Source: Candidatus Atabeyarchaeum deiterrae (GTDB lineage: Archaea > Asgardarchaeota > Atabeyarchaeia > Atabeyarchaeales > Atabeyarchaeaceae). Taken from it: DNA of 64,000 nucleotides. Shown here piece by piece: positions 1,064-59,794 of this stretch (position 1 is its first letter; every line of letters begins with the position of its first letter). The translations under genes were made by a program, and so were the position numbers. The stretch is from positions 992,001 through 1,056,000 of the forward strand of contig CP147780.1 in the NCBI GenBank assembly GCA_037310415.1, given 5' to 3'. The notes beneath the pieces were generated by a model that was not told where the DNA came from, searched no databases, and saw nothing but the letters and a program-made list of their open reading frames with translations.

Positions 1064-1990
1064 TTGCGCGCAAAGGCATTTTGCCCAGGTCACATAACAG
1101 GTTTCTTCGAGATCTGCGACGAACTCAGTGATCCACTTAGACGTGGATCACGTGGCGCAGGTGTATCGATAACAAAGGGAGTACTTACAGAGGTGACAAT
1201 CGAGGAATCAAGTTCAACTAAGGTGCAGAGTTACATAAATGGTAAACTATCTCTAGCTCCAGTAACAAGAAAAGTAGTCAGCCAGATGTTTGCGTTACGG
1301 AAGGATAGAAGGGATTGGCAAGTGTCAGTCAGACACGATTCACAGGTGCCTGTCGGATGTGGTATCGGCTCAAGCGGTGCGGGAGCATGGGGTACTGCTC
1401 TTGCTCTGAATTACCTATTCCAACTGAATTTGACTCATGACAGGATTGGACAAGTAGCTCATCAAGCCGAAGTTGATGAGAAGACGGGACTTGGCACAGT
1501 TCTTGCGCAGCAAAAAGGAGGAATTGAAATACGAACGAGTCCAGGTGCTCCAGGAATCGGTCATGCGGATCAACTGCCATTCAACCCAGATCTACGAATA
1601 GTCTACAGTTCGATTGGTCCCATCTCAACAAGAGCCATGCTCTCCGATCCTGCCGTAAAAGCAAAAATCAACGAGTTTGGTGCAGAATACGTTCAACAAT
1701 TATCGAACAATGCTTCTCCCAAAGAACTTATGAGTCTATCCAGACGATTCGCAGAACAAACTCAACTACTGTCAAGAGAATTGAGAATAGGCTTGGAGTT
1801 GCTTGATGAACATGGATTCCGTGACTCCAGCATGGCCTTATTTGGAGAGACGATCTTCAGCCTCGTGTGGATAGAAGAGGTTGAGACCGTAGCTGACGTC
1901 CTCAGACAATGGAACCAAAAAGGTGAAACTCATTCAGCTGAGATCGACGTGATTGGAGCAAGGTTAGTGGAGTGCGAAAGAGATGTCTGA
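1064..1990 (+). CDS. pok: Pantoate kinase (GHMP family)
   Basis: N-terminal AFCPGHITGFF, GSRGAG, PVGCGIGSSGA, AHQAEV..TGLGTV; overlaps pps. Confidence 0.9.
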   Translation: MRAKAFCPGHITGFFEICDELSDPLRRGSRGAGVSITKGVLTEVTIEESSSTKVQSYINGKLSLAPVTRKVVSQMFALRKDRRDWQVSVRHDSQVPVGCGIGSSGAGAWGTALALNYLFQLNLTHDRIGQVAHQAEVDEKTGLGTVLAQQKGGIEIRTSPGAPGIGHADQLPFNPDLRIVYSSIGPISTRAMLSDPAVKAKINEFGAEYVQQLSNNASPKELMSLSRRFAEQTQLLSRELRIGLELLDEHGFRDSSMALFGETIFSLVWIEEVETVADVLRQWNQKGETHSAEIDVIGARLVECERDV

Positions 1991-2777
1991 GATCCCTGAA
2001 ACACATCCTAGATCAGCTTCGCTGAGAATAAGGGAGCGTCTAATAGAAGGATTCAAACAAGGTTATGTCGCAATGGCAGGTTTGATCGCTCATGGTCGGG
2101 GTGAAGCATTCGACTATTTAATTGGAGAGTTAAGCATCGACGCGGCTCTGGTTGCAGCGAAGGTGGGCGCAGCTGCGCTATTGATTGCGAAGCATCCAGT
2201 CATAAGTGTCAATGGCAACTTAGCAGCTCTGGCGGCGAGGGAAACGATCGAGCTCGCACAGCTGACTAACTCGAAGACTGAAGTCAACCTCTTTTACAGA
2301 ACGCCTGAACGCGAATTGATCATTGAAGGTGTCTTGAAGGAAGCAGGCGCTTCTGAGGTTCTGGGAGTTCAAGACTCAGCAAGCGCGACCATACCAGAAC
2401 TTGATAGCAGAAGGAGAAGAGTGGATCCCCGCGGAATTCTTGTTGCGGACGTTGTTCTCGTCCCTATGGAGGATGGAGACAGAACTGAGGCCTTGCGAAA
2501 AATGGGTAAGACTGTGATAGCGATTGATTTGAATCCAATTAGTCGGACAGCTAAGGCTGCAAGCATAACTATCGTTGACAATGTTGTGAGAGCCATGCCA
2601 AACCTCGTACTCGAGGCAAGCAAGTTGAAAAGCGAAGGAAAGAAGTCAGAACTCGAGAGGCTGGTCAAAGGATTCGACAATAGGAAGAATCTTGTAGATT
2701 GTCTTTCTCAAATCTGGAATGGAATTTCAAGATTAAAGAAGGACGGTTTTCCTTCCACATTTGATGAAGATGTTTAA
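1983..2777 (+). CDS. pps: 4-phosphopantoate--beta-alanine ligase (archaeal phosphopantothenate synthetase)
   Basis: HPRSASL, GLIAHGRGEAFDYLIGE, SVNGN, VNLFYRT, VPMEDGDR, IDLNPISRT. Confidence 0.93.
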   Translation: MSEIPETHPRSASLRIRERLIEGFKQGYVAMAGLIAHGRGEAFDYLIGELSIDAALVAAKVGAAALLIAKHPVISVNGNLAALAARETIELAQLTNSKTEVNLFYRTPERELIIEGVLKEAGASEVLGVQDSASATIPELDSRRRRVDPRGILVADVVLVPMEDGDRTEALRKMGKTVIAIDLNPISRTAKAASITIVDNVVRAMPNLVLEASKLKSEGKKSELERLVKGFDNRKNLVDCLSQIWNGISRLKKDGFPSTFDEDV

Positions 2778-2842
2778 TACTGATTCTGGCAATAGTATTG
2801 TACCTTCAGTAATTGAACGAATAAGGAATATGTTCACAATCC

Positions 2843-4183
2843 GTGATTCTGGGAGGCGTCAGACTAGCAATGGGTGAATCCAAAGAGCAACGAAAACCCA
2901 TTCTTCAAGTCGCTCTTGACTTTGAGAACCTGCACCGTGCGGTCCAAATAGCATCTGAAGCGGTCAAGGGCGGAGCTGACTGGCTTGAAGCTGGGACCCC
3001 CCTGATCAAGAGCGAAGGTTTGCAGGCCGTAAGAGAATTTAGAAAGCGATTCCCTGACAAGGTGATAGTCGCTGACATGAAGACCATGGACACTGGCAGG
3101 TTTGAGGTAGAGATAGCTGCCAAGGCTGGAGCTCAAATAGTGATTATACTCGCGACCGCCGATGACAGCACAATCAAGGAGGCAGTTGAAGCTGGTCGCA
3201 ACTACGGCGCTCAAATAATGGTCGACTTGCTTAATGTCAACGATATGGTGTCTAGGGCGGTAGAATTGGAAAAGTTGGGTGTTGACTACATTTGCGTGCA
3301 CATAGGCATCGACCAACAGATGCGAGGCATGAAAGCTGAGAATGTGATCAAGCAAGTTGCAGAGGTTGTCCATACTCCCATAGCTGCAGCCGGTGGCGTG
3401 AACTCTGAAAACGCTCCGACCTTGGTTGAGGCTGGTGCCCAGATAGTGATTGTTGGGGGCGCAGTGACAAAAGCTGAAAACGCTGAGGAAGCGGCTCGAA
3501 CGCTGAAGAAGACAATGCTGACAGGGAAGCCAATAGCCACGAAACTCTACAAGAAGTACGCTGAGGAAGAGATTGTGAAAGTGTTCAAGATGTGTTCAAC
3601 GCCAAACATATCTGACGCTATGCACAGACGCGGCGAGATGAAAGGTATCGTTCCGATTGCGCCTGGTTTCAAAATGGTTGGAAAAGCATTGACTGTGAGA
3701 ACATATCCAGGCGATTGGGCAAAGCCTGTTGAAAGCATAGATGTTGGTAGCAGGGGGGACGTCATAGTCATTGAAGCTGGTGGGCAGGGTCCAGCCGTGT
3801 GGGGAGAACTTGCATCATGGAGCTGCAAGACACAGGGTATCGAAGGAGTCGTGATAGACGGTGCCATAAGAGACGTTGAAGACATTAGAGAGCTGAAGTT
3901 ACCTGCATTTTCACGACTAATCAGTCCAACGGCAGGCGAACCGAAAGGATTCGGCGAAATAAACATTGACATAACATGCGGAGGAGTCAAGGTTAGACCC
4001 GGCGACTACATTATTGGTGACGACAACGGAGTCGTAGTAGTCCCAAAAGAATCGGCTGTAGAAATCGCCAACAGGTCAATTGACGTAAGAGAGAAGGAAA
4101 ACAGACTGCGAGAAGAGATCAAGAGAGGCAGTACTCTCTCGAAAGTCCAGAAATTGAGGCAGTGGGAAAAAGTTATCGGGTGA
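2843..4183 (+). CDS. 3-hexulose-6-phosphate synthase (HPS) fused to an RraA/HMG-aldolase-like domain; likely start ATG 2870
   Basis: HPS barrel: LQVALD, EAGTPLIKSEG, ADMKTMD, HIGIDQQ, AAGG. RraA-like C-domain: NISDAM, WGE-x20-RD, PGDYIIGDDNG. Confidence 0.88.
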   Translation: MILGGVRLAMGESKEQRKPILQVALDFENLHRAVQIASEAVKGGADWLEAGTPLIKSEGLQAVREFRKRFPDKVIVADMKTMDTGRFEVEIAAKAGAQIVIILATADDSTIKEAVEAGRNYGAQIMVDLLNVNDMVSRAVELEKLGVDYICVHIGIDQQMRGMKAENVIKQVAEVVHTPIAAAGGVNSENAPTLVEAGAQIVIVGGAVTKAENAEEAARTLKKTMLTGKPIATKLYKKYAEEEIVKVFKMCSTPNISDAMHRRGEMKGIVPIAPGFKMVGKALTVRTYPGDWAKPVESIDVGSRGDVIVIEAGGQGPAVWGELASWSCKTQGIEGVVIDGAIRDVEDIRELKLPAFSRLISPTAGEPKGFGEINIDITCGGVKVRPGDYIIGDDNGVVVVPKESAVEIANRSIDVREKENRLREEIKRGSTLSKVQKLRQWEKVIG

Positions 4184-4251
4184 AGTTGACTCTCAGAGCT
4201 ACTCACTTCGCTTTCGTTCTATTCGCCAGACAATAATGGTCTATCGGTGAA

Positions 4252-5211
4252 GTGGTTTTGCGATTAGTTGTTCTTGGAGCAGGCGCTATAGGCAGCTTGT
4301 TCGGCGGTCTGCTATCAGAGGCTGGTTTAGATGTTGTATTGATAGGAAGGTCTTCGCATGTTAAAGCCATCAAATCCCATGGACTACACATCAATGGAGT
4401 CAGCGGCCGCAGAATACTGAAACTCAGGTCTGAGGCGAAGGTTTCAGCAATAAAGGAAAAGTCGGATATCGTTTTATGCACAGTCAAGGCTTATGATACG
4501 AAACAAGCAGCCATCGATGCGAAGCCTCTGATTGGAGAAGACTCTCTGTTTTTATGCATCCAGAATGGTCTCGATGTCGAGAGAGAAGCTGCCGAAGTGT
4601 TCGGAGCAAGTAGAACAGAACGAGGAGTCACTAACAATGGCGTCCTATTCACAAAACCAGGTTACATCAATCACACAGGCTTGGGAGACACCCTCATCGG
4701 CTGTTCCAATAAACAATGGCAAAAAAGAATCGATGGGCTGGTAGAATCCCTGAACAAAGTGGGTCTACCTTCCAAGGTGACCGGCGATATTCAGAAAGTC
4801 GTCTGGTCAAAGGTTCTCATCAATGTAGGTATAAACGCAATAGGCGCATTAACACACCTCAGGAATGGAGACCTTCTAGCGAGACCGCACCTGAAGGACT
4901 TAATGAGGTCGGCTGTAAATGAGGGATTGAATGTCGCTGACAAGCTTGGGCTTAACTTTAGAGAAGAGGACATCGTCGAGAAAACCTTTAAGGTTGCTAA
5001 GGCAACATCCTTGAATAAGAATTCGATGCTTCAGGACTTGGAAAAAGGTCGAAGAACAGAAATAGATTTCATAAACGGAGCCATCGAGAAGACTGGGAAG
5101 ACCATCGGAGTGCCCACACCAGTCAATAGTACGCTCACAGCATTGTTGAAGGGACTAGAATCTAGGATCGGGAAAGAGCAGACGCAGACAGGAACAATTT
5201 CAGCCTTTTGA
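4252..5211 (+). CDS. panE: 2-dehydropantoate 2-reductase (ketopantoate reductase)
   Basis: GAGAIG, VKAYD, QNG, WSKVLIN, NSMLQD, RTEIDFINGAI. Confidence 0.92.
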   Translation: MVLRLVVLGAGAIGSLFGGLLSEAGLDVVLIGRSSHVKAIKSHGLHINGVSGRRILKLRSEAKVSAIKEKSDIVLCTVKAYDTKQAAIDAKPLIGEDSLFLCIQNGLDVEREAAEVFGASRTERGVTNNGVLFTKPGYINHTGLGDTLIGCSNKQWQKRIDGLVESLNKVGLPSKVTGDIQKVVWSKVLINVGINAIGALTHLRNGDLLARPHLKDLMRSAVNEGLNVADKLGLNFREEDIVEKTFKVAKATSLNKNSMLQDLEKGRRTEIDFINGAIEKTGKTIGVPTPVNSTLTALLKGLESRIGKEQTQTGTISAF

Positions 5212-5227
5212 AAAGGAGAGAAGGTTC

Positions 5228-6394
5228 TTGGAAGAAGCGGGTATTGCGACAGAGAGAGTCCTAAAAGAACTAGAGGAACACACCAGAGACGACTTCACAA
5301 ATGACTCAGGTAGAATACTTGGCTCCATGATATGTAAGCCTCACGAATTCGCGGTCGAAGTCTACATGAAGTACATTGAGAAGAATCTTGGAGATCCAGG
5401 ACTGTACCCAGGCGTAGGTAAGATTGAAAAAGAGGCTATTCGAATGATAGGGTCGCTACTCAGTCACCCCAAAGCTTACGGTAACATTGTGACTGGAGGT
5501 TCTGAGGCCAATTTGATGGCGATGGCAGTTGCTCGGAATATGAGAAAAGACATACGCAGACCGGAGGTCATTCTTCCAAGATCAGCCCATGTTTCCTTTG
5601 CAAAAGCGGGTTGTCTACTTGGTCTCCGCGAAAGAAAGGTCGGACTGACTAGATTCTTTGAAATGAATGTAGACGAATTACGAAAATCAATCACGAAGAA
5701 CACTGTCGCCATTGTTGCCGTGGCAGGCACGACGCTTCTGGGCGTGGTTGACCCAATTAAAGAGATCTCCGAGATAGCTGACGAAAACCAGATATATCTC
5801 CATATAGACGCTGCTTTCGGTGGATTCGTAATTCCTTTTCTTAAAGAGCTCGGCTATTCTGCGCCAGAGTTTGACTTCAAACTCAGAGGAGTCTCTTCGA
5901 TAACTGCAGATCCACATAAGATGGGCTTTTGCCCGATTCCTTCAGGAGGAATACTCTTCAGGAAACAGAACTACGTCAAATACAACAGTGTCAAGGTTCC
6001 ATATCTTGCCGGAGGGATTGCAACCCAAGGAACGATAGTAGGTACGCGGAGCGGGGCATCCGCGTGTGCTGTTTGGGCCCTTATGAAGCACCTTGGTCGA
6101 GAAGGATTTAGGGAACCTGTTAAACACTGCATGGAACTCACGCACTACCTTGCAGATGAAATCGAACGCTTGGATGGTGTTGAACTCACGGTTCCACCCA
6201 CAGTTAACATTATAGGGATCAGATCAAAGGACTACGCAATCCGATCCATCTGGAAGAAACTGAGAGACATAGGTTGGGCCGTTGGTGGACTTAGAGAGTC
6301 ACTTCGCGTCGTGATTCTCCCCCACCATCGGCGCGAGCATATTGACGCTTTCCTTACGGATCTGAAAACTGTGCTGCGCGACATGGGAAAATAG
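5228..6394 (+). CDS. mfnA: Group II PLP-dependent decarboxylase (MfnA family); by context probably aspartate 1-decarboxylase
   Basis: GSMIC, NLGDPGLYPG, TGGSEAN, HIDAAFGGF, DPHKMG, GTRSG; last gene of the CoA operon. Confidence 0.85.
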   Translation: MEEAGIATERVLKELEEHTRDDFTNDSGRILGSMICKPHEFAVEVYMKYIEKNLGDPGLYPGVGKIEKEAIRMIGSLLSHPKAYGNIVTGGSEANLMAMAVARNMRKDIRRPEVILPRSAHVSFAKAGCLLGLRERKVGLTRFFEMNVDELRKSITKNTVAIVAVAGTTLLGVVDPIKEISEIADENQIYLHIDAAFGGFVIPFLKELGYSAPEFDFKLRGVSSITADPHKMGFCPIPSGGILFRKQNYVKYNSVKVPYLAGGIATQGTIVGTRSGASACAVWALMKHLGREGFREPVKHCMELTHYLADEIERLDGVELTVPPTVNIIGIRSKDYAIRSIWKKLRDIGWAVGGLRESLRVVILPHHRREHIDAFLTDLKTVLRDMGK

Positions 6395-10825: not shown

Positions 10826-11920
10826 CTAGTATTTCACCACTTTAGTTAGCTTTTCGGGTTTGTCTGGGTCAAGGCCTTTCTTGATAGCTGCGTGAAAGGC
10901 GAACAGCTGAATAGGAACGATATAGACTATTGGGGTAAATATCTCATCAACTTTGCTTTCAACATTAATGCACTCAAACGATCGTCCATCGATGTCCCTT
11001 TCTTCTCCGTAGCATGTAACTAACACCATGCGGGCACCAAGTTCCCTGATGTTAGTAATACTCCTGATCGATTCCTCTCTTCCCTCTGAATGAGGCATAA
11101 ACACTAGAATGGGTGTCCCCTCATGAACCAACTGCATAGGTCCGTGAATGAATTCTCTCGTTGCAAAGCCTTCAGCAAAGATTTCTGCAGCCTCTTTGAG
11201 CTTGAGTGCTCCCTCAAGCGCGGTGGCATAGTTCGGTCCGCTACCCAACAGGAAGATGAACTTGTTAGATTTCAGCCTCTCCGCCAACCTGGTTACTTGG
11301 GTCTCAGTTGCAGAGAGCGTGTCCTTAACCCACTGCGGAACTTCCATTATTGTTTTCTTCAATCTGGACAAGGTTCCCTCATCAGACACTCTGAGTCTCT
11401 CGGCAGATGCAATTGCTATAGTAAACATTGTCGCGAGTTGGGCCGTATAGGTTTTTGTTGCCGTCAACGCCTTCTCTTCGCCAGCATATGTGTGAACACT
11501 CAAGTGAGCGAGTCTTGTCAGCGAGCTTCCAGGAGTATTCGTTATTGCAACCACAACGGAACCATTGTCGCGAGCGACTGTTGCAGCACTTAGGACGTCT
11601 GCGCTCTCACCAGACTGAGAAACAGCGAAAACCAATGACTTCTTACCCACTGCGCGAGGAACCCAGTATTTGAACTCAGAGGAAGGTATAACTGACGTTG
11701 AAGTCTTCGTTATTCCAGCCATGGCATATTGCCCAGCAAGTCCTGCGTGATAGCTTGTCCCACTACCAGTAATATAGATCAGATCAAAGTCCTTTGTTGG
11801 GTAGAGTTCTAAGAGCCTCTCCGCCTCAGGCGTACTTTTCTGAAGCGTTCTTGCAATCGCCTCAGGCTGCTCATAAATCTCTCTAAGCATCAAGTGGGAT
11901 GAGCCATCCTTCCCGCTCAT
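10826..11920 (-). CDS. SIS-domain sugar-phosphate isomerase/deaminase (GlmS C-terminal/GlmD-like, no glutaminase domain)
   Basis: MLREIYEQP, GSGTSYHA, SQSGES, ATKTY, EGALKLKE, HGP, GLDPDKPEKLTKVV. Confidence 0.88.
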   Translation of the reverse strand: MSGKDGSSHLMLREIYEQPEAIARTLQKSTPEAERLLELYPTKDFDLIYITGSGTSYHAGLAGQYAMAGITKTSTSVIPSSEFKYWVPRAVGKKSLVFAVSQSGESADVLSAATVARDNGSVVVAITNTPGSSLTRLAHLSVHTYAGEEKALTATKTYTAQLATMFTIAIASAERLRVSDEGTLSRLKKTIMEVPQWVKDTLSATETQVTRLAERLKSNKFIFLLGSGPNYATALEGALKLKEAAEIFAEGFATREFIHGPMQLVHEGTPILVFMPHSEGREESIRSITNIRELGARMVLVTCYGEERDIDGRSFECINVESKVDEIFTPIVYIVPIQLFAFHAAIKKGLDPDKPEKLTKVVKY

Positions 11921-13627: not shown

Positions 13628-14374
13628 GTGATGGAGAAAGACAAACCCTTCCCTGCACCAGAAGGAGTTCCTAATTTTGACTCTGGATCTCGGTCATCTC
13701 AGCTCCTAGTGTTTGGTGCTCATCCTGATGATGAAGTTGTGGGCATGGGTGGAACTATCGCGAAGTTTGCCAGAGCTCGTCATAATGTTTTCGTGGTCAT
13801 CTTCACGAAGGGTGAGGAGGGATATGCGCACCTGAATCTCAAAGACACAATAGCCCAAGTCCGGCAGAAGGAGATCGAGAAAGTGAGTGAGATTCTTGGA
13901 GTAAAGAAATATGAACTCCTTGGTAGACCAGACATGGGGCTGAAAAATGATAAAGAGACATTCAAGGAGACTATTCGAATGATCAGGATGTTCAAACCGG
14001 ACGCCGTTTTTACCCACTACAGGGTTGACAGGCACCGCGATCACATTGCAGCCTCAAGACTCGTAACGGAAGCTTTCTGGCAAGCAGGCGAATCAGTCTC
14101 AATGGAGCTGGGGCATCCATGGAAAAGTAAGGCGCTCTACTATTACGAGGAAGTTTGCCCTTTCAAGTTTCCTTCACATATAGTAGACATAAGTGAGACG
14201 TTCGAAGCTAAGATCGAGTCGATGAAGACTTACATGTCCCAGATTCCAGTGGTTCCTTTCATACTGAAAGGAATGGAGGGCCAAGCGATGGGAAGGGGGA
14301 CGGTGATTGGGGCGAAGTATGGTGAAGCCTTCCTTAGATCGAACGTGAATCCAAGAAGGGAGCTTGAATTCTAG
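13628..14374 (+). CDS. PIG-L/LmbE family N-acetyl-sugar deacetylase
   Basis: AHPDDE, FTKGEEG, HRDH, VDISETFEAKIES...SQ, YGEAF. Confidence 0.88.
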   Translation: MMEKDKPFPAPEGVPNFDSGSRSSQLLVFGAHPDDEVVGMGGTIAKFARARHNVFVVIFTKGEEGYAHLNLKDTIAQVRQKEIEKVSEILGVKKYELLGRPDMGLKNDKETFKETIRMIRMFKPDAVFTHYRVDRHRDHIAASRLVTEAFWQAGESVSMELGHPWKSKALYYYEEVCPFKFPSHIVDISETFEAKIESMKTYMSQIPVVPFILKGMEGQAMGRGTVIGAKYGEAFLRSNVNPRRELEF

Positions 14375-18131: not shown

Positions 18132-18686
18132 ATGTTCATCTATATTCTAGTTCACGTTGAAAGCGATGGCAAGGGTGAGAACTCGAAGCAGGTGACTAGA
18201 TTAATGCAAGGATCCAGAGATGGTCTGTTCAAGGAGGAATATAAGACATGGCAGAGGACCAACATTGAGAACATAGTAGCTATGTTGCGGCCAATGCAAA
18301 GCCTCCATGGCGAGAATGTCATTAAACTTGCTTCGGTGGCTTATTTGTCACTGATCCGTCAAAGGTGGAAGAGAATCGGAGACGAATCTGGAAACAGGAG
18401 TATGTCAGAACTCTTCAGTAGACTCTGGGAGACATCCAAGAGCTTGTTTTCTTATGAAGTTGTCCAGAAAGATGAGAACTCGTTGTTGTTGGTCGTCAGC
18501 TCATGTTTTTGGGCAGATGAATTTAGAAGACTTGGCGCCCCAGAAATAGGCTATGAGCTTTGTTGTATGGCTGACTTTTATATTACTGAAGGATTTAACC
18601 CCTCGATTATCTATAGCAGAGACAAAACCATAATGAGAGGGGACAGTTACTGCGACCATCACTATGTGATGGCTAGGAAGCAATGA
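18132..18686 (+). CDS. L-2-amino-thiazoline-4-carboxylic acid hydrolase-like (V4R-related) protein
   Basis: CFWA..F, GYELCCMAD, GFNP, RDKTIMRGDSYCDH. Confidence 0.75.
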   Translation: MFIYILVHVESDGKGENSKQVTRLMQGSRDGLFKEEYKTWQRTNIENIVAMLRPMQSLHGENVIKLASVAYLSLIRQRWKRIGDESGNRSMSELFSRLWETSKSLFSYEVVQKDENSLLLVVSSCFWADEFRRLGAPEIGYELCCMADFYITEGFNPSIIYSRDKTIMRGDSYCDHHYVMARKQ

Positions 18687-18824: not shown

Positions 18825-19796
18825 ATGCAAGAGTTAAGGTGGAATCCCGTGCTTCAAGAGTGGGTAATAGTTGCATCCCACAGGAAGGACAGACCCCTTG
18901 ACGACGAAGGCAACAAGAAATGCCCATTCTGCTCTGGACCAGAAGTCGAGGGCGACTGGGACGTCCTGAGCCTTCCAAACAGATACGCGTCTCTTTCACT
19001 AGACCCTCCCAATCCATCTTCGAAACCGCGTTCGCTGTACGCGGTCGAACCAGCATATGGTGCATGTGAAGTAATCTTGGAAACCAAGCAGCATACCGGT
19101 GACCTAGGTGACCTACCAGTCGAGAGAATAAAGAAGGTGATAGACCTCTTCGCCGAAAGATTTCGTGCTCTGGGCTCCAATCGAAAAATCAAATACGTGC
19201 TTGGGTTTAGAAACAAGGGCAAAGAAATCGGAGTCAGCCTTCATCATCCTCACTCCCAAATATATGCACTGCCATTTATCCCTCCACTAGTCCGGGCGGA
19301 GCTAGATTCAAGCAATGAATACATGAAGAAGGAAGGAGATTGCCTCTTCTGCAGAATCATAGCGGAAGAGAAGGCGGACAATCGTCGAGTGATCTGCGAG
19401 AATAACGAGGCCATATGCTTCCTTCCCTTCTATGCCAGGTGGCCATACGAGACACATATCTATCCGAAGAGACATATTCAGTGTTTGCTAGATATGAAGG
19501 AAAATGAGCGGATGGACTTCGCGGCCATACTGAAGCAGATTATCACATCTTACAACAATCTATTCGATTTCTCTTTTCCATACATAATGGTCATACACCA
19601 GCGACCAACGGATGACGACGACTACAGCTATTATCACACGCACATAGAGTTCTACCCACCTTACAGAAGTAAAGACAAGCTAAAGTTCAGAGCAGGAATC
19701 GAACAGGGAGGCGGAACTTCTACGATGGACTATGAGCCTGAGGAGAAAGCTTTGGAACTCAGAAACCTATGCAAGCGGCTATTTCAAAACAAATAG
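18825..19796 (+). CDS. galT: Galactose-1-phosphate uridylyltransferase
   Basis: ELRWNP..EWV, CPFC, GVSLHHPHSQIY, CLFC, PYE, HTHIEFYPP. Confidence 0.93.
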   Translation: MQELRWNPVLQEWVIVASHRKDRPLDDEGNKKCPFCSGPEVEGDWDVLSLPNRYASLSLDPPNPSSKPRSLYAVEPAYGACEVILETKQHTGDLGDLPVERIKKVIDLFAERFRALGSNRKIKYVLGFRNKGKEIGVSLHHPHSQIYALPFIPPLVRAELDSSNEYMKKEGDCLFCRIIAEEKADNRRVICENNEAICFLPFYARWPYETHIYPKRHIQCLLDMKENERMDFAAILKQIITSYNNLFDFSFPYIMVIHQRPTDDDDYSYYHTHIEFYPPYRSKDKLKFRAGIEQGGGTSTMDYEPEEKALELRNLCKRLFQNK

Positions 19797-21935: not shown

Positions 21936-23186
21936 TCAGGTTTTCAACCAACTTGTGATCTTCTCCTGTTTCCTGAAGATCTCTAGTACCTTACTTCTAC
22001 TTGTCCAATTAGGGAGAGGAAGTGTGAGGTGTTTTCCCAGTTCATTCAATGCATCCTTGAGGCTGTTAGCTTTGAATGGAGGTTTCTTCGTTGCTTCGCG
22101 AAGTATCTCCCTCACTCTCCAGACTCCCAGAGGAATCCACTCCTTTTTGACCTCTAATAGTGTGACGATGGCTGCTTGTCTCTTTATGTGTTTCAAGTAT
22201 TCTAGGACTGGTAGCCTTGTCGCGTAGTATGCTCCTCCTACTGTGCTAGCGTATGTCGTTCTTCCGTGAAAGAGCTCGTGGTCCGAGTCAGGATGAGGAC
22301 TGGGCCCGATGAGCCAGCACTCCAAGGCTTCAAACATCCAAGAACTAGGTAGAAACAACGCTTGAACGTTATTGTGCAATGCCTCGTGTCCAACAACCAT
22401 GAACTCGTTTATCCAGGGAAATCTAGTGACCTCTTTGTGGAGTTTCTTTCCCAATATGTCGTCGGTTGCGGTGATACTCCACTCCGTTGGTACGAGTCTT
22501 CTCCTTTTCTTAGTTCCCAGTAGTCCGATTGAGAGCAGACGAGTTATCTGACGCTGGGGAACCATGGCATCATATAAATCGACCATTCCTTCAATCGCTT
22601 TGAGGTCGGTGTCACCCACAACGGAATCAATCTTGCGAGGTATGGACGGGTTTGTAGTTACTTTTAGTTTTTCTATTGTTGCGGATGGGCCTACGGGAAC
22701 CTCGCGGGGTGAGAACATTATCTCAAGCCTTGGTTTCTTCGTGAAGACAGCTTCCGTCTCAGTTGGACGAGAGGCCATGACGATCTCCTGAACGGTTTGC
22801 AGCATTCTATCTGGGTTCTGGGCTGAGGTCACCTTGACTGCAGTCTTTCCTCTAACTAAGCTGAAACGATAGCGAAGGAGATCCTCGATTCTTTTGTCCA
22901 ACCACATCTCTGGAGAATCCATGATGGCAGTCTCTTCACCTACTATTGGTGGGATCAATGGTCCTGCCAAAACCTTCGGGTATCCCCAGCTTCCCACGAA
23001 GACTGCAGGCGGTGATGAGCCGAAAATATCCTCCTTGAGGATTTTATCCAACTCTACGGTGGCTTCAGCTTTGATAAGTATTGGGCAAATCGGCTTCCCG
23101 CAGAGTCTCCTGAACCCTCGGCAAGAAGTACACATGCTGACATGCTCTGTTTCTCTGCTGTAGGTCAAGAGTTTCAGTTGACTCAT
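21936..23186 (-). CDS. Nre-family archaeal DNA repair protein (PCNA-interacting)
   Basis: CTSCRG..LCG..CP, GSSPPAVFVG..GYP, LVPTEWSIT, GGAYYA.RL, PLGVW.VRE, C-terminal PIP box QEKITSW. Confidence 0.88.
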   Translation of the reverse strand: MSQLKLLTYSRETEHVSMCTSCRGFRRLCGKPICPILIKAEATVELDKILKEDIFGSSPPAVFVGSWGYPKVLAGPLIPPIVGEETAIMDSPEMWLDKRIEDLLRYRFSLVRGKTAVKVTSAQNPDRMLQTVQEIVMASRPTETEAVFTKKPRLEIMFSPREVPVGPSATIEKLKVTTNPSIPRKIDSVVGDTDLKAIEGMVDLYDAMVPQRQITRLLSIGLLGTKKRRRLVPTEWSITATDDILGKKLHKEVTRFPWINEFMVVGHEALHNNVQALFLPSSWMFEALECWLIGPSPHPDSDHELFHGRTTYASTVGGAYYATRLPVLEYLKHIKRQAAIVTLLEVKKEWIPLGVWRVREILREATKKPPFKANSLKDALNELGKHLTLPLPNWTSRSKVLEIFRKQEKITSWLKT

Positions 23187-28574: not shown

Positions 28575-29141
28575 TTGGTGATCGAGTTGGAGAGGAAACC
28601 TCCTTCATCACTCACAAGCCCGAAGTTCGTCGAAATAATCAAGATCCTGATGATTGGAGATGGTGGTGTCGGGAAGACAACGCTATTACATCGACTAGTA
28701 ACTGGTGGATACTCAGAACAGTCAATGACGATCGGGGTTGGATTTGCTTCCAAGGTCATGAGAACTCTTGATGGCAGGGAAGTGAAGTTGCAGGTGTGGG
28801 ATGTCGCTGGGCAAAGCAGGTTCAGACTTCTTGTCCCTTCTGCAAGGGGTGGTGCAAAGGGCATAATTCTTGTTTTTGATCTCTCCAGACCGTCAACGTT
28901 TGTGCGGCTCGATGATTGGGTAAGACTCGCGAGAAGCGATTTGCCACCGGAAAGACATGTTCCGATTGTTCTTGTTGGTGCAAAATGCGACCTTGCAAGA
29001 AAAGTGTTGACCGAAGAAGCCAGAAGTTTCACAGCCAGGATGAAACTGGATGAATATATCGAGACGAGTTCCAAGGGTAATATCAATGTGGAGAGACCAT
29101 TTGAAAAGCTCCTTCAGCTCCTTGTTCAAAAACCGAGATAA
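28575..29141 (+). CDS. Rab-like Ras-superfamily small GTPase
   Basis: G1 GDGGVGKT, G2 TIG, G3 WDVAGQ, G4 GAKCD, G5 ETSSK. Confidence 0.88.
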   Translation: MVIELERKPPSSLTSPKFVEIIKILMIGDGGVGKTTLLHRLVTGGYSEQSMTIGVGFASKVMRTLDGREVKLQVWDVAGQSRFRLLVPSARGGAKGIILVFDLSRPSTFVRLDDWVRLARSDLPPERHVPIVLVGAKCDLARKVLTEEARSFTARMKLDEYIETSSKGNINVERPFEKLLQLLVQKPR

Positions 29142-29157
29142 CTGGTCTTATTGACTG

Positions 29158-29886
29158 CTAAGCTGGGGCTAGTTGCATCTTCCTAACGGCATTCATCGTC
29201 AATAGGTGGTAGTTCCGCATGAACTTCGCTCTGATGATTGCGTCGTCAATTCCACCTATGCCTGCCAGGTCTCCAATGAGGTCTCCTAGTGCGTGGTACA
29301 ACGAGTCTTCATTTGGTCCTTTTATGAAGGCTGTAACGGACTTTCCCACTTTCGACCTTAGTTCTGCGGGCAATCCAGACTCGGGATCGAATATCGCTTT
29401 AAGAGGGCCGAGACTAGCTAAATAGAGTTCAATGTCAAGTCCAGTTCCTTTTCGGGCTGGTCTTATCTCCAATCTGCCTCCATCCTCCGTCGTCACGACG
29501 ATGTCTTTGTCTATGGTCTTCTCGTCCCTTACGGCACCAGTATCAAAGACGTTCTCATTTGCTGTCAGTTCCACTAATCCTCCGCTTATAGTGCCGTCAG
29601 GTCCACCCAGCACTGCCGAGGGCTTCAGCATGAGTGAATACGCGGCCCGATGCTGGGGTCTGGAGAAGTCCCATTCTTGCTCGATCCCATCCACCAATGC
29701 ATCATGAATCCCACATATCCTCAAGGCCGCCAATGGATGTTCGACCGTGAAAGCATAGTTACCTCCGTCTCGTAGCGTAACGTTACTGTCTCCTCTCACG
29801 ACATATTTTGGGGAAGCCAAAATGTGGTTCATTACGATCCCAGTATTAGCCTCCGCTGGCAAGACATTGACGACAATGGTTTGCAC
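29158..29886 (-). CDS. LpxC-like zinc deacetylase; possible ATT start at 29913
   Basis: PAEANTGI, TVEHPLAAL..GI, HALGDLIGDL, late His in NYHLL; in-frame TLKKAV upstream of the GTG. Confidence 0.65.
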   Translation of the reverse strand: MQTIVVNVLPAEANTGIVMNHILASPKYVVRGDSNVTLRDGGNYAFTVEHPLAALRICGIHDALVDGIEQEWDFSRPQHRAAYSLMLKPSAVLGGPDGTISGGLVELTANENVFDTGAVRDEKTIDKDIVVTTEDGGRLEIRPARKGTGLDIELYLASLGPLKAIFDPESGLPAELRSKVGKSVTAFIKGPNEDSLYHALGDLIGDLAGIGGIDDAIIRAKFMRNYHLLTMNAVRKMQLAPA

Positions 29887-29919
29887 TGCTTTTTTTAAAG
29901 TATGAAGATGAATACCTTC

Positions 29920-31101
29920 TCACCTCCCCCCTGATTCTTGTCGGTCTTCTAGGGCTGCCACTTCGCACGGTATCCTAGCGAGGATCCTGGATGCCCGAAA
30001 AGCTTCTCCTACAATACCTAACTCGTTTTGCTCGTTGGTCAGAGTTAGATCTCCTGGACCAAATGCTACGACATCCTTTGCGAAACCAGTTGATTTCAAT
30101 TCCCTAGCTGAGATGGGAAAAGGTAGCCATTCAAAGATAGGATCAAACCCCGTTGACTTGAGAAATGCCTGAGACAGGGCAGCAACGATGGGGGAATGAG
30201 AATCTTCCCGGAATGGTTCTTCTTCGAATATTTCTTCGATGGATGTTTCGCACCCACTCCCCTTCGTAACTTCAACCACAACACTTGACAACTTGTCCTT
30301 AAAGTCGGTGTGCGAGAACTCTGGAGGAGTTGACGCGTAATACTCAATCTCAACAGGAATAGACTCTCCAATTATCGCGGGGTCGGTCGCCTTGATATGT
30401 GTGGGTGTCATCGTTGGATACCCGAGGAGGAATCTTGAAAGAATCAGGGGGGGCGCTTCACCCACCTCGACTGGATATATGCTGTGCTTCGGTCTCATTA
30501 TTTCATTCAAGTTCTCGCCAAATCTCATGAGTGCGTTCCAGGGGTTCTGGCCGAGCCACGGAAAAGCAGGGTGGTGTAGTTTGCCTTTAATGCATAACTT
30601 GAAGACTATGCATCCCTTCTGGACACTGCATGCTCTCAGACCTGTTGACTCCACGACAACGAGATGCGTTCCAAATATCGTGTTACCATAATCGCCTGCT
30701 GACGCTCCCTTGACAGGATCTACAGTATGTCTTTGATACTTGCGTTTCTCTGCCTCATCTCCCAAGATGACCAAGAACACGTCAGTCTGCGGGGGGCGGT
30801 CCTCAGATAATGTTTTCAAGGCAAGAGTTGCTGAAGCAATGTTGGCTGCGAGCAAACGTGAGTAAGTCTCGTTGTTGACTTGCCTATCTTCCCCTGAAGA
30901 AGATGCTACTGAGAATGTTTTCCTGGCAGTCACAAGGAAAGCCGTGGAAGGAGAGCGATCATGCCCTCTCACGACAAAATAACTCGCATTGCCGGTGCAT
31001 TTCGCTGGAATTCTCTGAATCCCCTTAAGAGATGAAAGATAGTCGTCAACCAAGAACCTGGCTTCGCCTTTCCCTAACGAATTCAAGATCTCGTGATACA
31101 A
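29920..31101 (-). CDS. M20/ArgE-DapE-like protein lacking metal ligands
   Basis: M20 dimerisation motif QKGC...KGKLHHPAFPWLGQNP, SPIVAAL, VAFGPG; HxD, DxK, EE and final His absent. Confidence 0.65.
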   Translation of the reverse strand: MYHEILNSLGKGEARFLVDDYLSSLKGIQRIPAKCTGNASYFVVRGHDRSPSTAFLVTARKTFSVASSSGEDRQVNNETYSRLLAANIASATLALKTLSEDRPPQTDVFLVILGDEAEKRKYQRHTVDPVKGASAGDYGNTIFGTHLVVVESTGLRACSVQKGCIVFKLCIKGKLHHPAFPWLGQNPWNALMRFGENLNEIMRPKHSIYPVEVGEAPPLILSRFLLGYPTMTPTHIKATDPAIIGESIPVEIEYYASTPPEFSHTDFKDKLSSVVVEVTKGSGCETSIEEIFEEEPFREDSHSPIVAALSQAFLKSTGFDPIFEWLPFPISARELKSTGFAKDVVAFGPGDLTLTNEQNELGIVGEAFRASRILARIPCEVAALEDRQESGGR

Positions 31102-46288: not shown

Positions 46289-47662
46289 ATGTCGGATGGC
46301 TTTGATAACAAGAATGACATTACAAACGAAAGCCATTGGCTCCTATCCTTGCTCAAGGGTACTGGGGTCCCAGCTTCAGACCTATCCTACGACTTGAATC
46401 TACTCCGAGGCAGAGCTTCGAAGAGCAACATGTGCGTTTTGTGCAAAGGGGGAAAGTTTCTCTGCGGCAAACTGAGATGCTCAGTCTTAGCCAAAGCTTT
46501 GACCTACAGGAGGATTGCAAAATCCATTGACAGAGTTGACCTTAACGGAGCATCACCACCGGGAGTTTTCATAGGCAGAATGGGATACCCCCATGTATAC
46601 GCTGGACCACTCGTGCCGCCGATCCATGGCGACACCTACATCATGGATGTTCCCGAACTCTGGGGTCCTTGCGGATTCAGGAAATCGATAGATGACATAA
46701 TTGACTTCAGGTTGAATCTCGTAAGGGGCAAGACTCGCATGAACGTAAATGCAGCCTCAATGAATTCGGCCGGGAAGTCGATGGATGTGATCACCGAACT
46801 CGCATTAGCGAGGAATCCTGTCGAGACTGAGATGCTGCTGAGACATAAGCCAAGTGGATCAATAGTCTTGGATGACGACATACAACCTTTTGGTCCTTCT
46901 GCTCTAATCGAGAAAGTGAAAGTCGGGAATGTCTATTGGGATCCTCAGATCGAGAAGGCCTACTACGACCATGACTTGAAGGCATCCGACGCAGTTTTCT
47001 CCACATATGATAAAGGCACTCTGGTCTCAAGGATCCAGAAGGCTTTCAGCGTAGGAGCATTCGGAGTCAAAGAAAGGAGAAAACTCGTACCAACGCGCTG
47101 GAGCATAACTGCCGTTGACAGCATAATATCAAAGACCTTACTTGAGAAAGTAAAGACTCAACCACTAATCAACGAGTATAGGATCTACGAGTCAAGCTAT
47201 CTGGACAATCGCTGGATCATCCTAATGGCTCCACTTTCATGGACCTATGAACTTGTTGAAGCATGGTACCCTGGCACCACATGGAACCCGGACAGCAGGA
47301 ATATTGTAATATTCTCAGACCATGAAATGTTCGAAGGTCGCACAGCCTATCCAGACATAGGCGGATGCTATTTTGCAGCGAGACTTGCGATCGCAGAGAA
47401 ACTCGCTGCTGATCAACGCCAGGCAACTGCAATCGTGCTCAGAGAATCTCACCCAGGGTACATAGTACCCGCGGGAGTGTGGAATGTCCGGGAAAGCGTC
47501 AGAGGCGCGATGAGAGATCCACCCACAAAATACAGCAACCTTCGAGACGCAATGAACTACATATCCTCCAAGTTCGACATACCGTTACCAAAATGGGTTA
47601 AGACCAGCAAGCTGCTCTATGAACTGCTCCACCAAACAAGGATCGACGAGTTTCGATCCTGA
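46289..47662 (+). CDS. Second Nre-family DNA repair protein
   Basis: CVLCKGGKFLCG, SPPGVFIG..GYP, LVPTRWSITAVD, GGCYFAARL, GVWNVRESVR, PIP box QTRIDEF. Confidence 0.88.
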   Translation: MSDGFDNKNDITNESHWLLSLLKGTGVPASDLSYDLNLLRGRASKSNMCVLCKGGKFLCGKLRCSVLAKALTYRRIAKSIDRVDLNGASPPGVFIGRMGYPHVYAGPLVPPIHGDTYIMDVPELWGPCGFRKSIDDIIDFRLNLVRGKTRMNVNAASMNSAGKSMDVITELALARNPVETEMLLRHKPSGSIVLDDDIQPFGPSALIEKVKVGNVYWDPQIEKAYYDHDLKASDAVFSTYDKGTLVSRIQKAFSVGAFGVKERRKLVPTRWSITAVDSIISKTLLEKVKTQPLINEYRIYESSYLDNRWIILMAPLSWTYELVEAWYPGTTWNPDSRNIVIFSDHEMFEGRTAYPDIGGCYFAARLAIAEKLAADQRQATAIVLRESHPGYIVPAGVWNVRESVRGAMRDPPTKYSNLRDAMNYISSKFDIPLPKWVKTSKLLYELLHQTRIDEFRS

Positions 47663-57676: not shown

Positions 57677-58882
57677 ATGTCAGATCTTGATTACGAACTA
57701 GGACTACTTGAGAAACTCGTGTCTTTGGATACGGATTCAAATGAAAAAAGGAACTATGAGGAGTGTAGCAGACTAATATCAGGCGAAGCCAAAAGCGCAG
57801 GTCTGAAGGCCGAGATATTAGATGGAATTGAGGTTTTAAAGGATGATAAGCGACCTAGACCGAACGTAATTGTCGACCTAGATAAGAACTCGGATACTAC
57901 GCTCCTGCTTGTCACTCACTTTGATATTGTCCCCCCAGGAGGGGAATGGACTCATGACCCATTCAAACTTACAATCGAAAATGATAAAGCGTATGGCAGA
58001 GGAGCCAGCGACGACAAAGGCGCAATAGTCTCTTGCCTAGGTGCTCTCTCCAAACTTGCAGACGATAAGACGGCTGACGTAAACGTCAAGCTAATCATAA
58101 CGTGTGATGAGGAAGTTGGAGGAGAAGCCGGCATAGAATACCTCACTGACAGAGTCAAAATCAGAGGAGACGCAGCGCTAGTTGTTGATAGCGGACCTGA
58201 ATACGTGAGTTGTGGAGCAAGCGGAGTGATCTGGGGAAAGATAAAGGTAAAGGGTAAACAGGGTCATGCTGGATATCCGCACAGAGCAGTAAACGCAATT
58301 GAAGAAGCATTAAGGATGCTGTCCTCAATCCAGGACTACAAGAAGAAATTGGCGTCTGAGAAATCGAAGCTCAGAGCGCCACCTGACAGCCCTGAGAAGA
58401 ATGTCTGGCGGCGACTAACAGTTACAATGATACACGCAGGTGAGAAGGAGAACATTATCCCGGGTGAATGTGAGATCCGTTTCGATTTACGTGCGTTACC
58501 AGATGAGGATTTCAACATCATTAAAGGCAACACCGAGAGATTCATCACAAACGAAATTCGCAAGAAAGGTCTCGACGCTGAGTTTCAGATTGTACACTCC
58601 ATGTCTGGCTACTACACGGATCCAAATCATCCGTTACTGAGATCATTAGTTGAGGCTACTAGGAAAGTTTCGGGTCACGAGCTTCCTGTGGCGGCAGATC
58701 TTGGTGGCAATGATGGCACGTTCTTAGCTCGGGTCGGCGTGCCAGTCGCATGCTTCGGTCCTCTCCGGGAAGGAACCAACTACCATGGCAAAGATGAGTT
58801 TGTCTATCCAGCAGACATAGCATTCGCTCGTGATGTGATTGTGAAGCTATGCCAAGAAGGCAGAAGCAAGTTGAAAAGGTAG
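57677..58882 (+). CDS. M20-family metallopeptidase/deacylase (ArgE/DapE-like)
   Basis: THFDIVP, GRGASDDKG, DEEVGG, GKQGHAG, NYHGKDE. Confidence 0.88.
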   Translation: MSDLDYELGLLEKLVSLDTDSNEKRNYEECSRLISGEAKSAGLKAEILDGIEVLKDDKRPRPNVIVDLDKNSDTTLLLVTHFDIVPPGGEWTHDPFKLTIENDKAYGRGASDDKGAIVSCLGALSKLADDKTADVNVKLIITCDEEVGGEAGIEYLTDRVKIRGDAALVVDSGPEYVSCGASGVIWGKIKVKGKQGHAGYPHRAVNAIEEALRMLSSIQDYKKKLASEKSKLRAPPDSPEKNVWRRLTVTMIHAGEKENIIPGECEIRFDLRALPDEDFNIIKGNTERFITNEIRKKGLDAEFQIVHSMSGYYTDPNHPLLRSLVEATRKVSGHELPVAADLGGNDGTFLARVGVPVACFGPLREGTNYHGKDEFVYPADIAFARDVIVKLCQEGRSKLKR

Positions 58883-58945: not shown

Positions 58946-59794
58946 TCAGGCGACCCCACGCCACTCCTTGAGCGCCTTCTCATATCTTTCAGGCGTTCCC
59001 GTGTCAAACCACTGACCCGAGAACACGTAGCCGTACAATTCACCCTTTTCAGCTATCCGCGGGAAGACGTCTTTCTCTATAAACGACATCCTTCCATCAG
59101 AGATCAAATCGATGACTGATGGCTCAAGAATATACAATCCAGTGTTTATGAGTTTTGAGGGCGCATCCTCCTTGCGGGGTTTTTCAACGAACTTGATTAT
59201 CTTGTTTCCTTCGAGTACTGCCACGCCATAGCTTGAGGGGTCGTCAACAGTGGTCAGAGCAATTGTTGCAGTGGCCCTGTTCTCACGGTGAGTTTGATAC
59301 ATCTTGTATAAATCGATGCTCATCAGGTTATCTCCATTCACCATTATGAAAGTATCTTTGAGAAGGTGCTTAGCAAGTCTGAGAGGTCCGCCTGTACCGA
59401 GTTCCTGCTCTTCCTCCACGAAAGTTATCTTAACGCCAAACCTCTTCTCATCGCGGAAATACTCCTTTATCTTTTCGCCAAGATATCCAATGCTTATGAC
59501 GATATCCCGAACCTCGTATGTCCGGAGCAAATCAATGACATGCTCAAGGATCGGCTTTCCTTGAAGCGGGACCAGTGGCTTGGGAATCTCATAGGTTATT
59601 GGGCGGAGCCGAGTTCCTTTGCCGCCAGCCAAGATGAAAGCTTTGAGAGGCATTTTCTCAACCAAGGCCCTCACAAGCAATGATTCGACTGCTTGAGAAA
59701 GATTCCTCAACTTAACACCATCAATCATTGAACTGATCTTCCGCACAACATCACTGTCGAGGGTTATTGAAAGCTTCTTTTTTCGTCTCATCAT
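58946..59794 (-). CDS. Sugar-phosphate nucleotidyltransferase with N-terminal ribbon-helix-helix domain
   Basis: KKLSITLD...NLSQAVE; ILAGGKGTRLRP, PKPL, GTGG, NGD, FVEKP, WFDTGT. Confidence 0.88.
   Translation of the reverse strand: MMRRKKKLSITLDSDVVRKISSMIDGVKLRNLSQAVESLLVRALVEKMPLKAFILAGGKGTRLRPITYEIPKPLVPLQGKPILEHVIDLLRTYEVRDIVISIGYLGEKIKEYFRDEKRFGVKITFVEEEQELGTGGPLRLAKHLLKDTFIMVNGDNLMSIDLYKMYQTHRENRATATIALTTVDDPSSYGVAVLEGNKIIKFVEKPRKEDAPSKLINTGLYILEPSVIDLISDGRMSFIEKDVFPRIAEKGELYGYVFSGQWFDTGTPERYEKALKEWRGVA

Follow-up and report, generated by a model that had tools for sequence, protein, structure and literature searches.

Why should an archaeon carry a protein that resembles LpxC? LpxC is regarded as dedicated to lipid A synthesis, as unique in its fold and as a drug target specific to Gram-negative bacteria. 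An archaeal candidate lies on the minus strand of a 64,000-nucleotide stretch of Candidatus Atabeyarchaeum deiterrae DNA (contig CP147780.1, positions 992,001 to 1,056,000; hereafter the window), where a sequence-only reading had flagged a gene at 29158-29913 as encoding an LpxC-like zinc deacetylase. We found that its product is LpxC-like in fold and active site, has no role in lipid A synthesis and is encoded beside a degenerate M20-like protein that is probably its partner. Whether these two proteins together form a zinc amidohydrolase for a pantothenate-type compound, serving the salvage of vitamin B5 and coenzyme A (CoA) precursors, is a question on which we consider the case for and the case against evenly balanced.

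The relationship to LpxC was scrutinized at the level of profiles and of structure. The Pfam LpxC profile (PF03331) matched the protein with 29 bits against a gathering score of 27, spanning residues 13-77 alone, and the NCBIfam LpxC equivalogs gave 15-17 bits against cut-offs of 423-465. No match was returned when a profile of the close family was searched against PDB sequences at E-values up to 1; homology became visible by Pfam, a broader profile and hhalign. In a search of 5.8 billion proteins, a profile of 37 family members matched canonical LpxC proteins at E 5e-8 to 4e-4, and hhalign aligned the family with nine canonical LpxC sequences, E. coli first, over its whole length (222 columns, probability 98.2%, E 5.5e-14). 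Identity to LpxC was 17-23%. An AlphaFold2 model built from 49 diverse sequences reached a predicted local distance difference test (pLDDT) score of 96.9 and a predicted template modeling score (pTM) of 0.94, values to be read with the caveat that the modeling alignment contained six canonical LpxC sequences; with 18 close relatives alone the pLDDT was 38, and the 49-sequence alignment was used in its place. The top 50 Foldseek matches were LpxC structures only (E about 1e-13, template modeling score 0.65-0.73). VIA-align superposed 212 residues on Aquifex aeolicus LpxC (PDB 1yh8) with Z 23.7 and a root-mean-square deviation of 2.2 Å, and the next non-LpxC fold, ribosomal S5 domain 2-like, followed at about Z 7.

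In E. coli LpxC, zinc is bound by H79, H238 and D242, E78 serves as general base and H265 as general acid, T191 stabilizes the gem-diolate and K239 recognizes pyrophosphate, while the acyl tunnel is made up of Insert II with L18, I198, C207, F212 and V217 (PMC13342928). The archaeal residues E58, H59, H207, D211, D215 and H236 (equivalents in Table 1) were invariant in the 37 family members, down to 23% identity, and these six stayed invariant in alignments of 49-51 sequences to which canonical LpxC had been added. In these alignments, the catalytic apparatus has been kept whole, comprising the His-His-Asp zinc site, the Glu base, the His acid with its Asp partner, and the oxyanion Thr. The Insert I region is retained as well. 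In contrast to LpxC (EC 3.5.1.108; PF03331; PDB 1yh8, 4mdt), the archaeal protein is about 50 residues shorter and lacks Insert II and the GxGLHTG hairpin that holds L18 and H19 of LpxC; F192 is not kept, and K239 is replaced by Ala208, a position occupied by Ala in most members and otherwise by Ser, Thr, Cys, Val or Trp. Some 20 residues are newly inserted behind the GIxDA strand; they include a helix at residues 86-93 in the model and are predicted to dock a partner. Since the catalytic residues are invariant and L18/H19, K239 and Insert II are gone, we concluded that LpxC chemistry has been conserved, in contrast to the elements by which LpxC recognizes its substrate. The sequence-only reading had listed the LpxC motifs in their right order, the Lys-to-Ala change in the zinc motif and a length below that of the bacterial enzyme, all of which were borne out, as was the LpxC-like zinc hydrolase itself; the acyl-binding Insert II, whose possible loss it had raised, is indeed lost (12 versus 46 residues).

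The reading frame itself needed an explanation for its first codon. The minus-strand frame is open from 29919 to a TAG stop at 29160-29158 and, numbered from the Ile encoded at 29913, contains TLKKAV at residues 5-10, PAEANTGI at 19-26, TVEHPLAAL at 56-64, HALGDLIGDL at 207-216 and the late His, H236. The codon at 29913 is ATT, and the first canonical start, GTG at 29886, would give a protein of 242 residues. Relatives of 252-253 residues all start with M-HLHTL, aligned with this ATT codon, and have ATG or another start codon there. Six nucleotides upstream of the ATT lies GGAGGTGA, whose last three bases form the TGA stop of the partner gene. The homologous first codon is ATA in a sister closed genome (G003, locus L014) and ATG in a further genome (G002, locus L011), and in all three genomes AGGTGA, overlapping the upstream TGA stop, precedes the first codon; the next canonical start in G003 would cost 38 conserved residues. 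On account of the relatives' start, the upstream GGAGGTGA and the ATA in G003, position 29913 was taken as a near-cognate start and is probably the true one, so that the extent of 251 residues given in the sequence-only reading could be accepted with ATT as its first codon. The two subunit genes are probably translationally coupled, by near-cognate initiation or by termination-reinitiation.

Table 1. Features of the LpxC-like gene, its partner and their surroundings in the 64,000-nucleotide window (residues numbered from the Ile encoded at 29913).
Feature	Coordinates	Strand	Basis or remark
LpxC-fold hydrolase, coding sequence	29158..29913	-	251 residues plus stop; catalytic subunit in the proposed pair
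Probable near-cognate ATT start (29913-29911) with upstream GGAGGTGA (29927-29920)	29911..29927	-	sequence read
E58-H59, equivalent to LpxC E78 (general base) and H79 (zinc ligand)	29737..29742	-	invariant; hhalign
Family-specific insert, residues 81-95, WDFxRPxHRxA	29629..29673	-	gap in LpxC alignment; predicted partner docking surface
T194, equivalent to LpxC T191	29332..29334	-	Thr/Ser across family; aligned to ARTF of LpxC
Insert II stump	29296..29331	-	12 residues between T191 and H238 equivalents versus 46 in E. coli; hhalign gap
H207-A208-x2-D211-x3-D215, equivalent to LpxC H238 (zinc), K239, D242 (zinc) and D246	29269..29295	-	
H236, equivalent to LpxC H265 (general acid)	29206..29208	-	invariant; hhalign
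Degenerate M20/ArgE-DapE-like partner gene	29920..31101	-	393 residues from TTG; directly upstream, co-directional
CoA operon (context, not part of the unit)	1064..6394	+	NCBIfam matches; 23 kb from the pair
SIS protein	10826-11920		window glycan gene
PIG-L	13628-14374		window glycan gene
GalT	18825-19796		window glycan gene
Nucleotidyltransferase	58946-59794		window glycan gene
AglB	60848-63424		window glycan gene

The presence of an LpxC-like gene in an archaeal assembly also raised the question of its origin. A single closed contig of 2.76 Mb makes up the genome, the G+C content is even across the window, and the order uS12, partner, LpxC-like gene, Ras-like GTPase, NadB is common to three genomes of the family to which it belongs (f1) and to long metagenomic contigs. 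Because the genome is a closed single contig of even G+C in the window, and because the gene occupies the same syntenic place in all three f1 genomes, it is not part of a bacterial chimera, a possibility that the sequence-only reading had left to be checked. The same reading had noted that the window holds no lpxA, lpxB or lpxD, and this agrees with the wider picture: the LpxA C-domain, LpxB and LpxK were not found in the whole closed genome. One sub-threshold LpxD-N match (20 bits against a cut-off of 30.8) belongs to a 306-residue hexapeptide-repeat transferase (G000:C1:2499712-2500632; L037:413-1333, minus strand) and is the only lpx-like signal of the genome. The LpxC-like protein gave no match to PF02585, the PIG-L fold.

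An exhaustive profile search of 1.84 billion representative proteins placed the gene in a family of 42 clusters, nearly all of 230-300 residues and mostly archaeal. By name, the sources were Njordarchaeota, Odinarchaeia/Odinarchaeota, Promethearchaeota, Hydrothermarchaeota, a Euryarchaeota metagenome-assembled genome (MAG) and one Desulfocucumaceae MAG; one source contig is labeled Bathyarchaeota and was assigned by taxonomy to the phylum of the window genome. Within that phylum, the gene was carried by 12 of 400 species genomes, these being all the members of four families, f1, f21, f27 (small-genome Odin-type) and f29. A maximum-likelihood tree set two deep subclades apart from the remaining members. 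In the second of these (L010, L039) the LpxC-like proteins are 23-26% identical to the window protein, and their genes are overlapped by genes for proteins of about 400 residues (L010:4811-6004, L039:4836-6044) that are 36% identical to one another, match nothing in Pfam or PDB and have no relationship to the M20-like partner. The L010 pair is situated inside a mobile element with a resolvase, Mrr, a TraG-like ATPase and a relaxase. No fused or longer LpxC-like forms were found, which is weak evidence, and a feature search of the ESM Atlas led just to other LpxC-annotated clusters of about 250 residues. Relatives are named in databases either hypothetical or 'UDP-3-O-acyl-N-acetylglucosamine deacetylase', and the literature searched yielded no account of a short or archaeal family of LpxC-like proteins. 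What is new here is a re-tooled LpxC fold paired with an obligate pseudo-M20 protein.

The gene directly upstream encodes a protein that matched M20_dimer with 27.7 bits (gathering score 21) and TIGR01910 with 57 bits (E 1.7e-15, under the cut-off), and that aligns with true M20 proteins; against PDB sequences it found DapE and LysK at E 0.1-0.4 only. Its architecture, catalytic domain plus lid, is homologous to that of the M20 family (ArgE, DapE, LysK, aminoacylase-1, carnosinase, beta-ureidopropionase), and the EPT, QKG and FGPG landmarks are recognizable. Unlike M20 enzymes, it lacks the conserved His/Asp/Glu/His metal ligands and falls far under the family cut-offs. In a MAFFT alignment of very divergent sequences, T153, F224, G227, W325 and G348 were the only invariant residues of the partner family, and the positions of the M20 HxD motif, bridging Asp and C-terminal His were not conserved; in Odin-type partners, Ala or Gln takes the place of the EPT Glu. 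The partner is thus probably a pseudoenzyme and, apparently, the non-catalytic subunit of an unrelated hydrolase, a role for which we know of no described precedent among M20-like proteins. Where the partner begins is uncertain. TTG at 31101, its first canonical start, has no clear Shine-Dalgarno sequence, and relatives exceed the protein by 15-40 residues; upstream of this TTG the frame remains open for about 20 more codons, to about 31163, among which ATA and ATC are the only possible starts. A canonical M20 peptidase is encoded in the window 27 kb from the partner (57677-58882, plus strand; Peptidase_M20 105 bits, M20_dimer 86 bits).

The association of the two genes was conserved. A partner homolog adjoined the LpxC-like gene in 14 of 16 loci, covering Njord-, Odin- and Loki-type lineages and other contigs, with one small membrane-protein gene separating the two in Odin-type genomes. 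In L038, L035 and L009, which are likely bacterial, the gene is likewise followed by a full or shortened partner (hhalign 97.9%, 92.5% and 95%). Among all 400 phylum genomes, matches to the partner at E below 1e-60 were confined to 10 of the 12 that are positive for the LpxC-like gene, and lay beside that gene; the two other positive genomes gave a contig-end fragment (G309, E 1e-18) and a weaker match elsewhere (G279, E 8e-30). All remaining matches of the partner profile in the phylum (E 1e-9 to 1e-13) were ordinary M20 peptidases. In two loci (L008:6001-9063, L038:2343-5473) the pair is joined by a third gene for a fully canonical M20 peptidase, the trio being flanked by OPT and PanF in L008 and by energy-coupling factor (ECF) A/A'/T in L038, an arrangement that suggests a two-hydrolase module.

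A complex of the two proteins was predicted from both family alignments with an interface score (ipSAE) of 0.83, the best of three controls reaching 0.00. That mark of 0.83 is reached by 58 of 80 solved complexes and by 2 of 110 mismatched pairs, a calibration that is approximate here, since custom alignments were used. Three runs shared at least 92% of contacts, with a partner pLDDT of at least 90. The predicted interface involves the insert 81-95, strands 39-48, residues 105-106 and the Insert II stump (196-199) on the LpxC-like side, and segments holding F224, G227, P321 and W325 on the partner side; the shortened bacterial partner keeps exactly these predicted interface segments. To our knowledge, there is no solved complex of LpxC with an M20 protein, and recall of a known complex by the predictor is therefore unlikely. 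In the mechanism that we propose, the insert and the Insert II stump would dock the catalytically dead partner so that it forms one wall of the substrate site, and the partner may thereby stand in for Insert II.

Gene neighborhoods were scrutinized for the substrate of the pair. In Odin-type loci the order is partner, a five-transmembrane protein, LpxC-like gene, a pantoate-kinase-like GHMP kinase, a gamma-carbonic-anhydrase-like protein and CoaBC, and in family f29 it is partner, LpxC-like gene, pantoate kinase. The f21/Loki-type order is UMP kinase, 4-phosphopantoate-beta-alanine ligase (phosphopantothenate synthetase), partner, LpxC-like gene, aRF1, an FAH-family protein, pantoate kinase, an MfnA-type decarboxylase and ketopantoate reductase. 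In L008 the sodium/pantothenate symporter PanF (TIGR02119, 534 bits against a cut-off of 328) lies with YhdT two genes off, an OPT transporter lies directly upstream, and an extra active M20 peptidase is present. L035 and L009, likely bacterial because their lipoprotein carries a lipobox, share the order HAD phosphatase, CbiR-like TIM-barrel enzyme, PanF-like symporter, lipoprotein, LpxC-like gene, short partner and pantothenate kinase, the last being a type II enzyme (NF009842, 225 bits, full length). L038, from the Desulfocucumaceae MAG, has EcfA, EcfA', EcfT, an active M20 peptidase, the LpxC-like gene and the partner. Pantothenate-specific genes thus recur beside the pair in five or more lineages, each with its own arrangement, which is hard to obtain by chance with about 10 CoA genes per genome. 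The Odin-type five-transmembrane protein and the 203-residue lipoprotein encoded upstream in L009 and L035 proved unrelated. In the window, the CoA operon encodes pantoate kinase, phosphopantothenate synthetase, an HPS-RraA fusion, ketopantoate reductase and an MfnA-type decarboxylase.

What could a pantothenate-type amidohydrolase contribute? Most archaea rely on pantoate kinase and phosphopantothenate synthetase in place of pantothenate synthetase and pantothenate kinase (PMC6650551). A search for type III pantothenate kinase found none in this genome, and cells limited to the pantoate kinase/phosphopantothenate synthetase route would have no direct phosphorylation of pantothenate. Two reactions are candidates. 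By reaction (A), pantothenate would be cleaved to pantoate and beta-alanine, feeding pantoate kinase and phosphopantothenate synthetase and so letting archaea without pantothenate kinase use external pantothenate. By reaction (B), pantetheine-type amides would be cleaved to pantothenate ahead of a pantothenate-phosphorylating kinase, which would fit operons where pantothenate kinase or CoaBC follows. Reaction (A) is more likely than (B) for this Njord-type genome. Because neither fits everything, we commit ourselves only to a pantothenate-type amidohydrolase. The more specific proposal, that the pair is the orphan pantothenate amidohydrolase or the first prokaryotic B5-vitamer amidase and lets archaea of the pantoate kinase route salvage pantothenate, is offered tentatively, as possible and on balance unlikely.

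Known enzymes exist for both candidate reactions. The pantothenate amidohydrolase of Pseudomonas fluorescens, pantothenase (EC 3.5.1.22), would carry out reaction (A); its role in Pseudomonas is catabolic, whereas salvage is proposed for the archaeal pair. The protein behind the Pseudomonas activity was never identified (PMC10393543), and a sequence comparison is impossible with a protein that has no known sequence. Vanin, or pantetheinase (EC 3.5.1.92), corresponds to reaction (B) and acts upstream of pantothenate kinase, as the pair would in the L035-type operon. It differs in being a eukaryotic, extracellular member of the nitrilase superfamily, with an unrelated fold and a Cys-Glu-Lys triad in place of zinc.

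Two broader versions of this proposal were tried and given up. That the pair generally feeds phosphopantothenate synthetase fails on Odin-type and f29 genomes, which are without that enzyme. That it replaces a missing PanB was dropped as a main argument, the complementarity being only partial: PanB is absent from this genome and from three of the four pair-positive families, present in f21, and absent too from nine pair-negative families. With a candidate PanB substitute in the CoA operon, moreover, this genome could plausibly make pantoate de novo, and its pantoate supply can be explained without the pair.

Several points weigh against a function in B5 salvage. Gene neighborhoods are the sole basis of the assignment, and both in this genome and in the sister genome G003 the pair lies 23-26 kb from the CoA operon and does not adjoin it. 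Because of the 23 kb that separate them in the window, the B5 link of this genome is drawn by homology to other lineages. L009 and L035 also hold an RpiR/SIS regulator, the HAD phosphatase and the TIM-barrel enzyme, which fit a sugar-type substrate too. Of the two deep subclades, neither has a B5 context: in one, the gene stands alone in Hydrothermarchaeota and Euryarchaeota contigs, and in the other it pairs with the unrelated protein of about 400 residues. No single reaction suits all contexts, the product of (B) being unusable in archaea limited to pantoate kinase and phosphopantothenate synthetase. Reaction (A) in turn would be a dead end in Odin-type genomes, which are 93-98% complete and include two that are closed or almost closed. 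Phosphopantothenate synthetase, PanC, PanB and type III pantothenate kinase were not found in G300-G303 (Odin-type family f27) or in G309, and ketopantoate reductase was not found in G300-G303 and is present in G309. Finally, the complex is a prediction, and the zinc ligands would converge as judged from alignment and superposition, not from the model coordinates. The small genomes G300-G303 and G309 (loci L006, L025, L026, L030, L032) retain the pantoate-kinase-like gene and CoaBC, and their GHMP kinase may phosphorylate pantothenate.

How, then, do other explanations of the pair compare? It might be a zinc deacylase complex for another small amide, such as an N-acyl amino acid, something peptide-like or the precursor of a different vitamin or cofactor, its B5 neighbors reflecting loose clustering of cofactor and transport genes. 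The descent of the partner from M20 hydrolases of N-acyl amino acids and dipeptides is consistent with such a substrate, as are the active M20 peptidase and the OPT or ECF transporters of L008 and L038, the distance of the pair from the CoA genes here and the lack of one B5 reaction that fits all loci. Loose clustering sits poorly with the recurrence of pantoate kinase, phosphopantothenate synthetase, CoaBC, PanF with YhdT and type II pantothenate kinase in at least five lineages, and we think this explanation rather improbable. A sugar substrate was the suggestion of the sequence-only reading, which envisaged a repurposed deacetylase, perhaps for a non-acylated N-acetyl sugar of glycolipid or N-glycan synthesis; as weighed here, the explanation also takes in sugar nucleotides and amino-sugar metabolism. 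Its repurposing stands, acyl and UDP recognition having been lost; its substrate found no support in conserved neighborhoods. Sugar N-deacetylation is the chemistry of LpxC, a CE4 deacetylase occurs near the gene in L002, and the RpiR/SIS regulator, HAD phosphatase and xylose-isomerase-like TIM barrel of L009 and L035 would agree with it. The glycan genes that the sequence-only reading had cited are in the window (Table 1), yet they lie 9-31 kb from the gene and none recurs beside the family in about 20 loci. Furthermore, the lysine for the UDP pyrophosphate has become Ala, the H19 hairpin is deleted, the L035 kinase is by full-length match a type II pantothenate kinase and no sugar kinase, and the genome already owns a PIG-L-type deacetylase. 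We hold an N-acetyl-sugar deacetylase to be decidedly improbable.

Two further explanations concern the protein itself. A non-enzymatic or regulatory protein of LpxC-like shape would be in keeping with a partner that is a pseudoenzyme; invariance of six catalytic residues down to 23% identity would be unexpected without catalysis, and we give this little credence. A bona fide LpxC acting on UDP-3-O-acyl-GlcNAc (GlcNAc, N-acetylglucosamine), present through bacterial acquisition or contamination, could appeal to the LpxC names of some database entries and to a Pfam match slightly over the gathering score. It would have to work without Insert II, L18/H19 and K239, with NCBIfam equivalog scores of 15-17 bits where the cut-offs exceed 420, and in a closed genome that has no LpxA, LpxB or LpxK and keeps the gene syntenic in all three f1 genomes at even G+C; we consider it hardly conceivable. 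A zinc amidohydrolase for a pantothenate-type compound remains the explanation that we prefer.

Other genes near the pair were recorded in passing. A Ras/Roc-type small GTPase (28575-29141, plus strand; Pfam Ras 132 bits) is convergent with the LpxC-like gene across a 16-nucleotide gap, and Ras/Arf-like genes flank the gene in the related contigs L002 and L007 too; such genes are typical of Asgard archaea and have no evident functional link to it. Two paralogous archaeal Nre genes, each with N- and C-domain, lie within 25 kb of each other (21936-23186, minus strand; 46289-47662, plus strand), and a member of the L-2-amino-thiazoline-4-carboxylate hydrolase family (ATC_hydrolase, 62 bits; 18132-18686, plus strand) adjoins GalT.

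For the family, these data describe an archaeal branch in which the LpxC fold has been re-tooled, with catalysis kept, the acyl tunnel apparently swapped for a protein partner, and a setting among CoA gene clusters. They call for caution with the 'UDP-3-O-acyl-GlcNAc deacetylase' labels on some family proteins. If the assignment is true, the LpxC fold would have its first second function, and an M20 pseudoenzyme would for the first time be seen to act as a subunit of an unrelated hydrolase. If the B5 link holds, the gene behind a pantothenase-type activity would become testable, and so would the source of phosphopantothenate in archaea that lack pantothenate kinase, among them genome-reduced Odin-type Asgard archaea with no pantoate synthesis.

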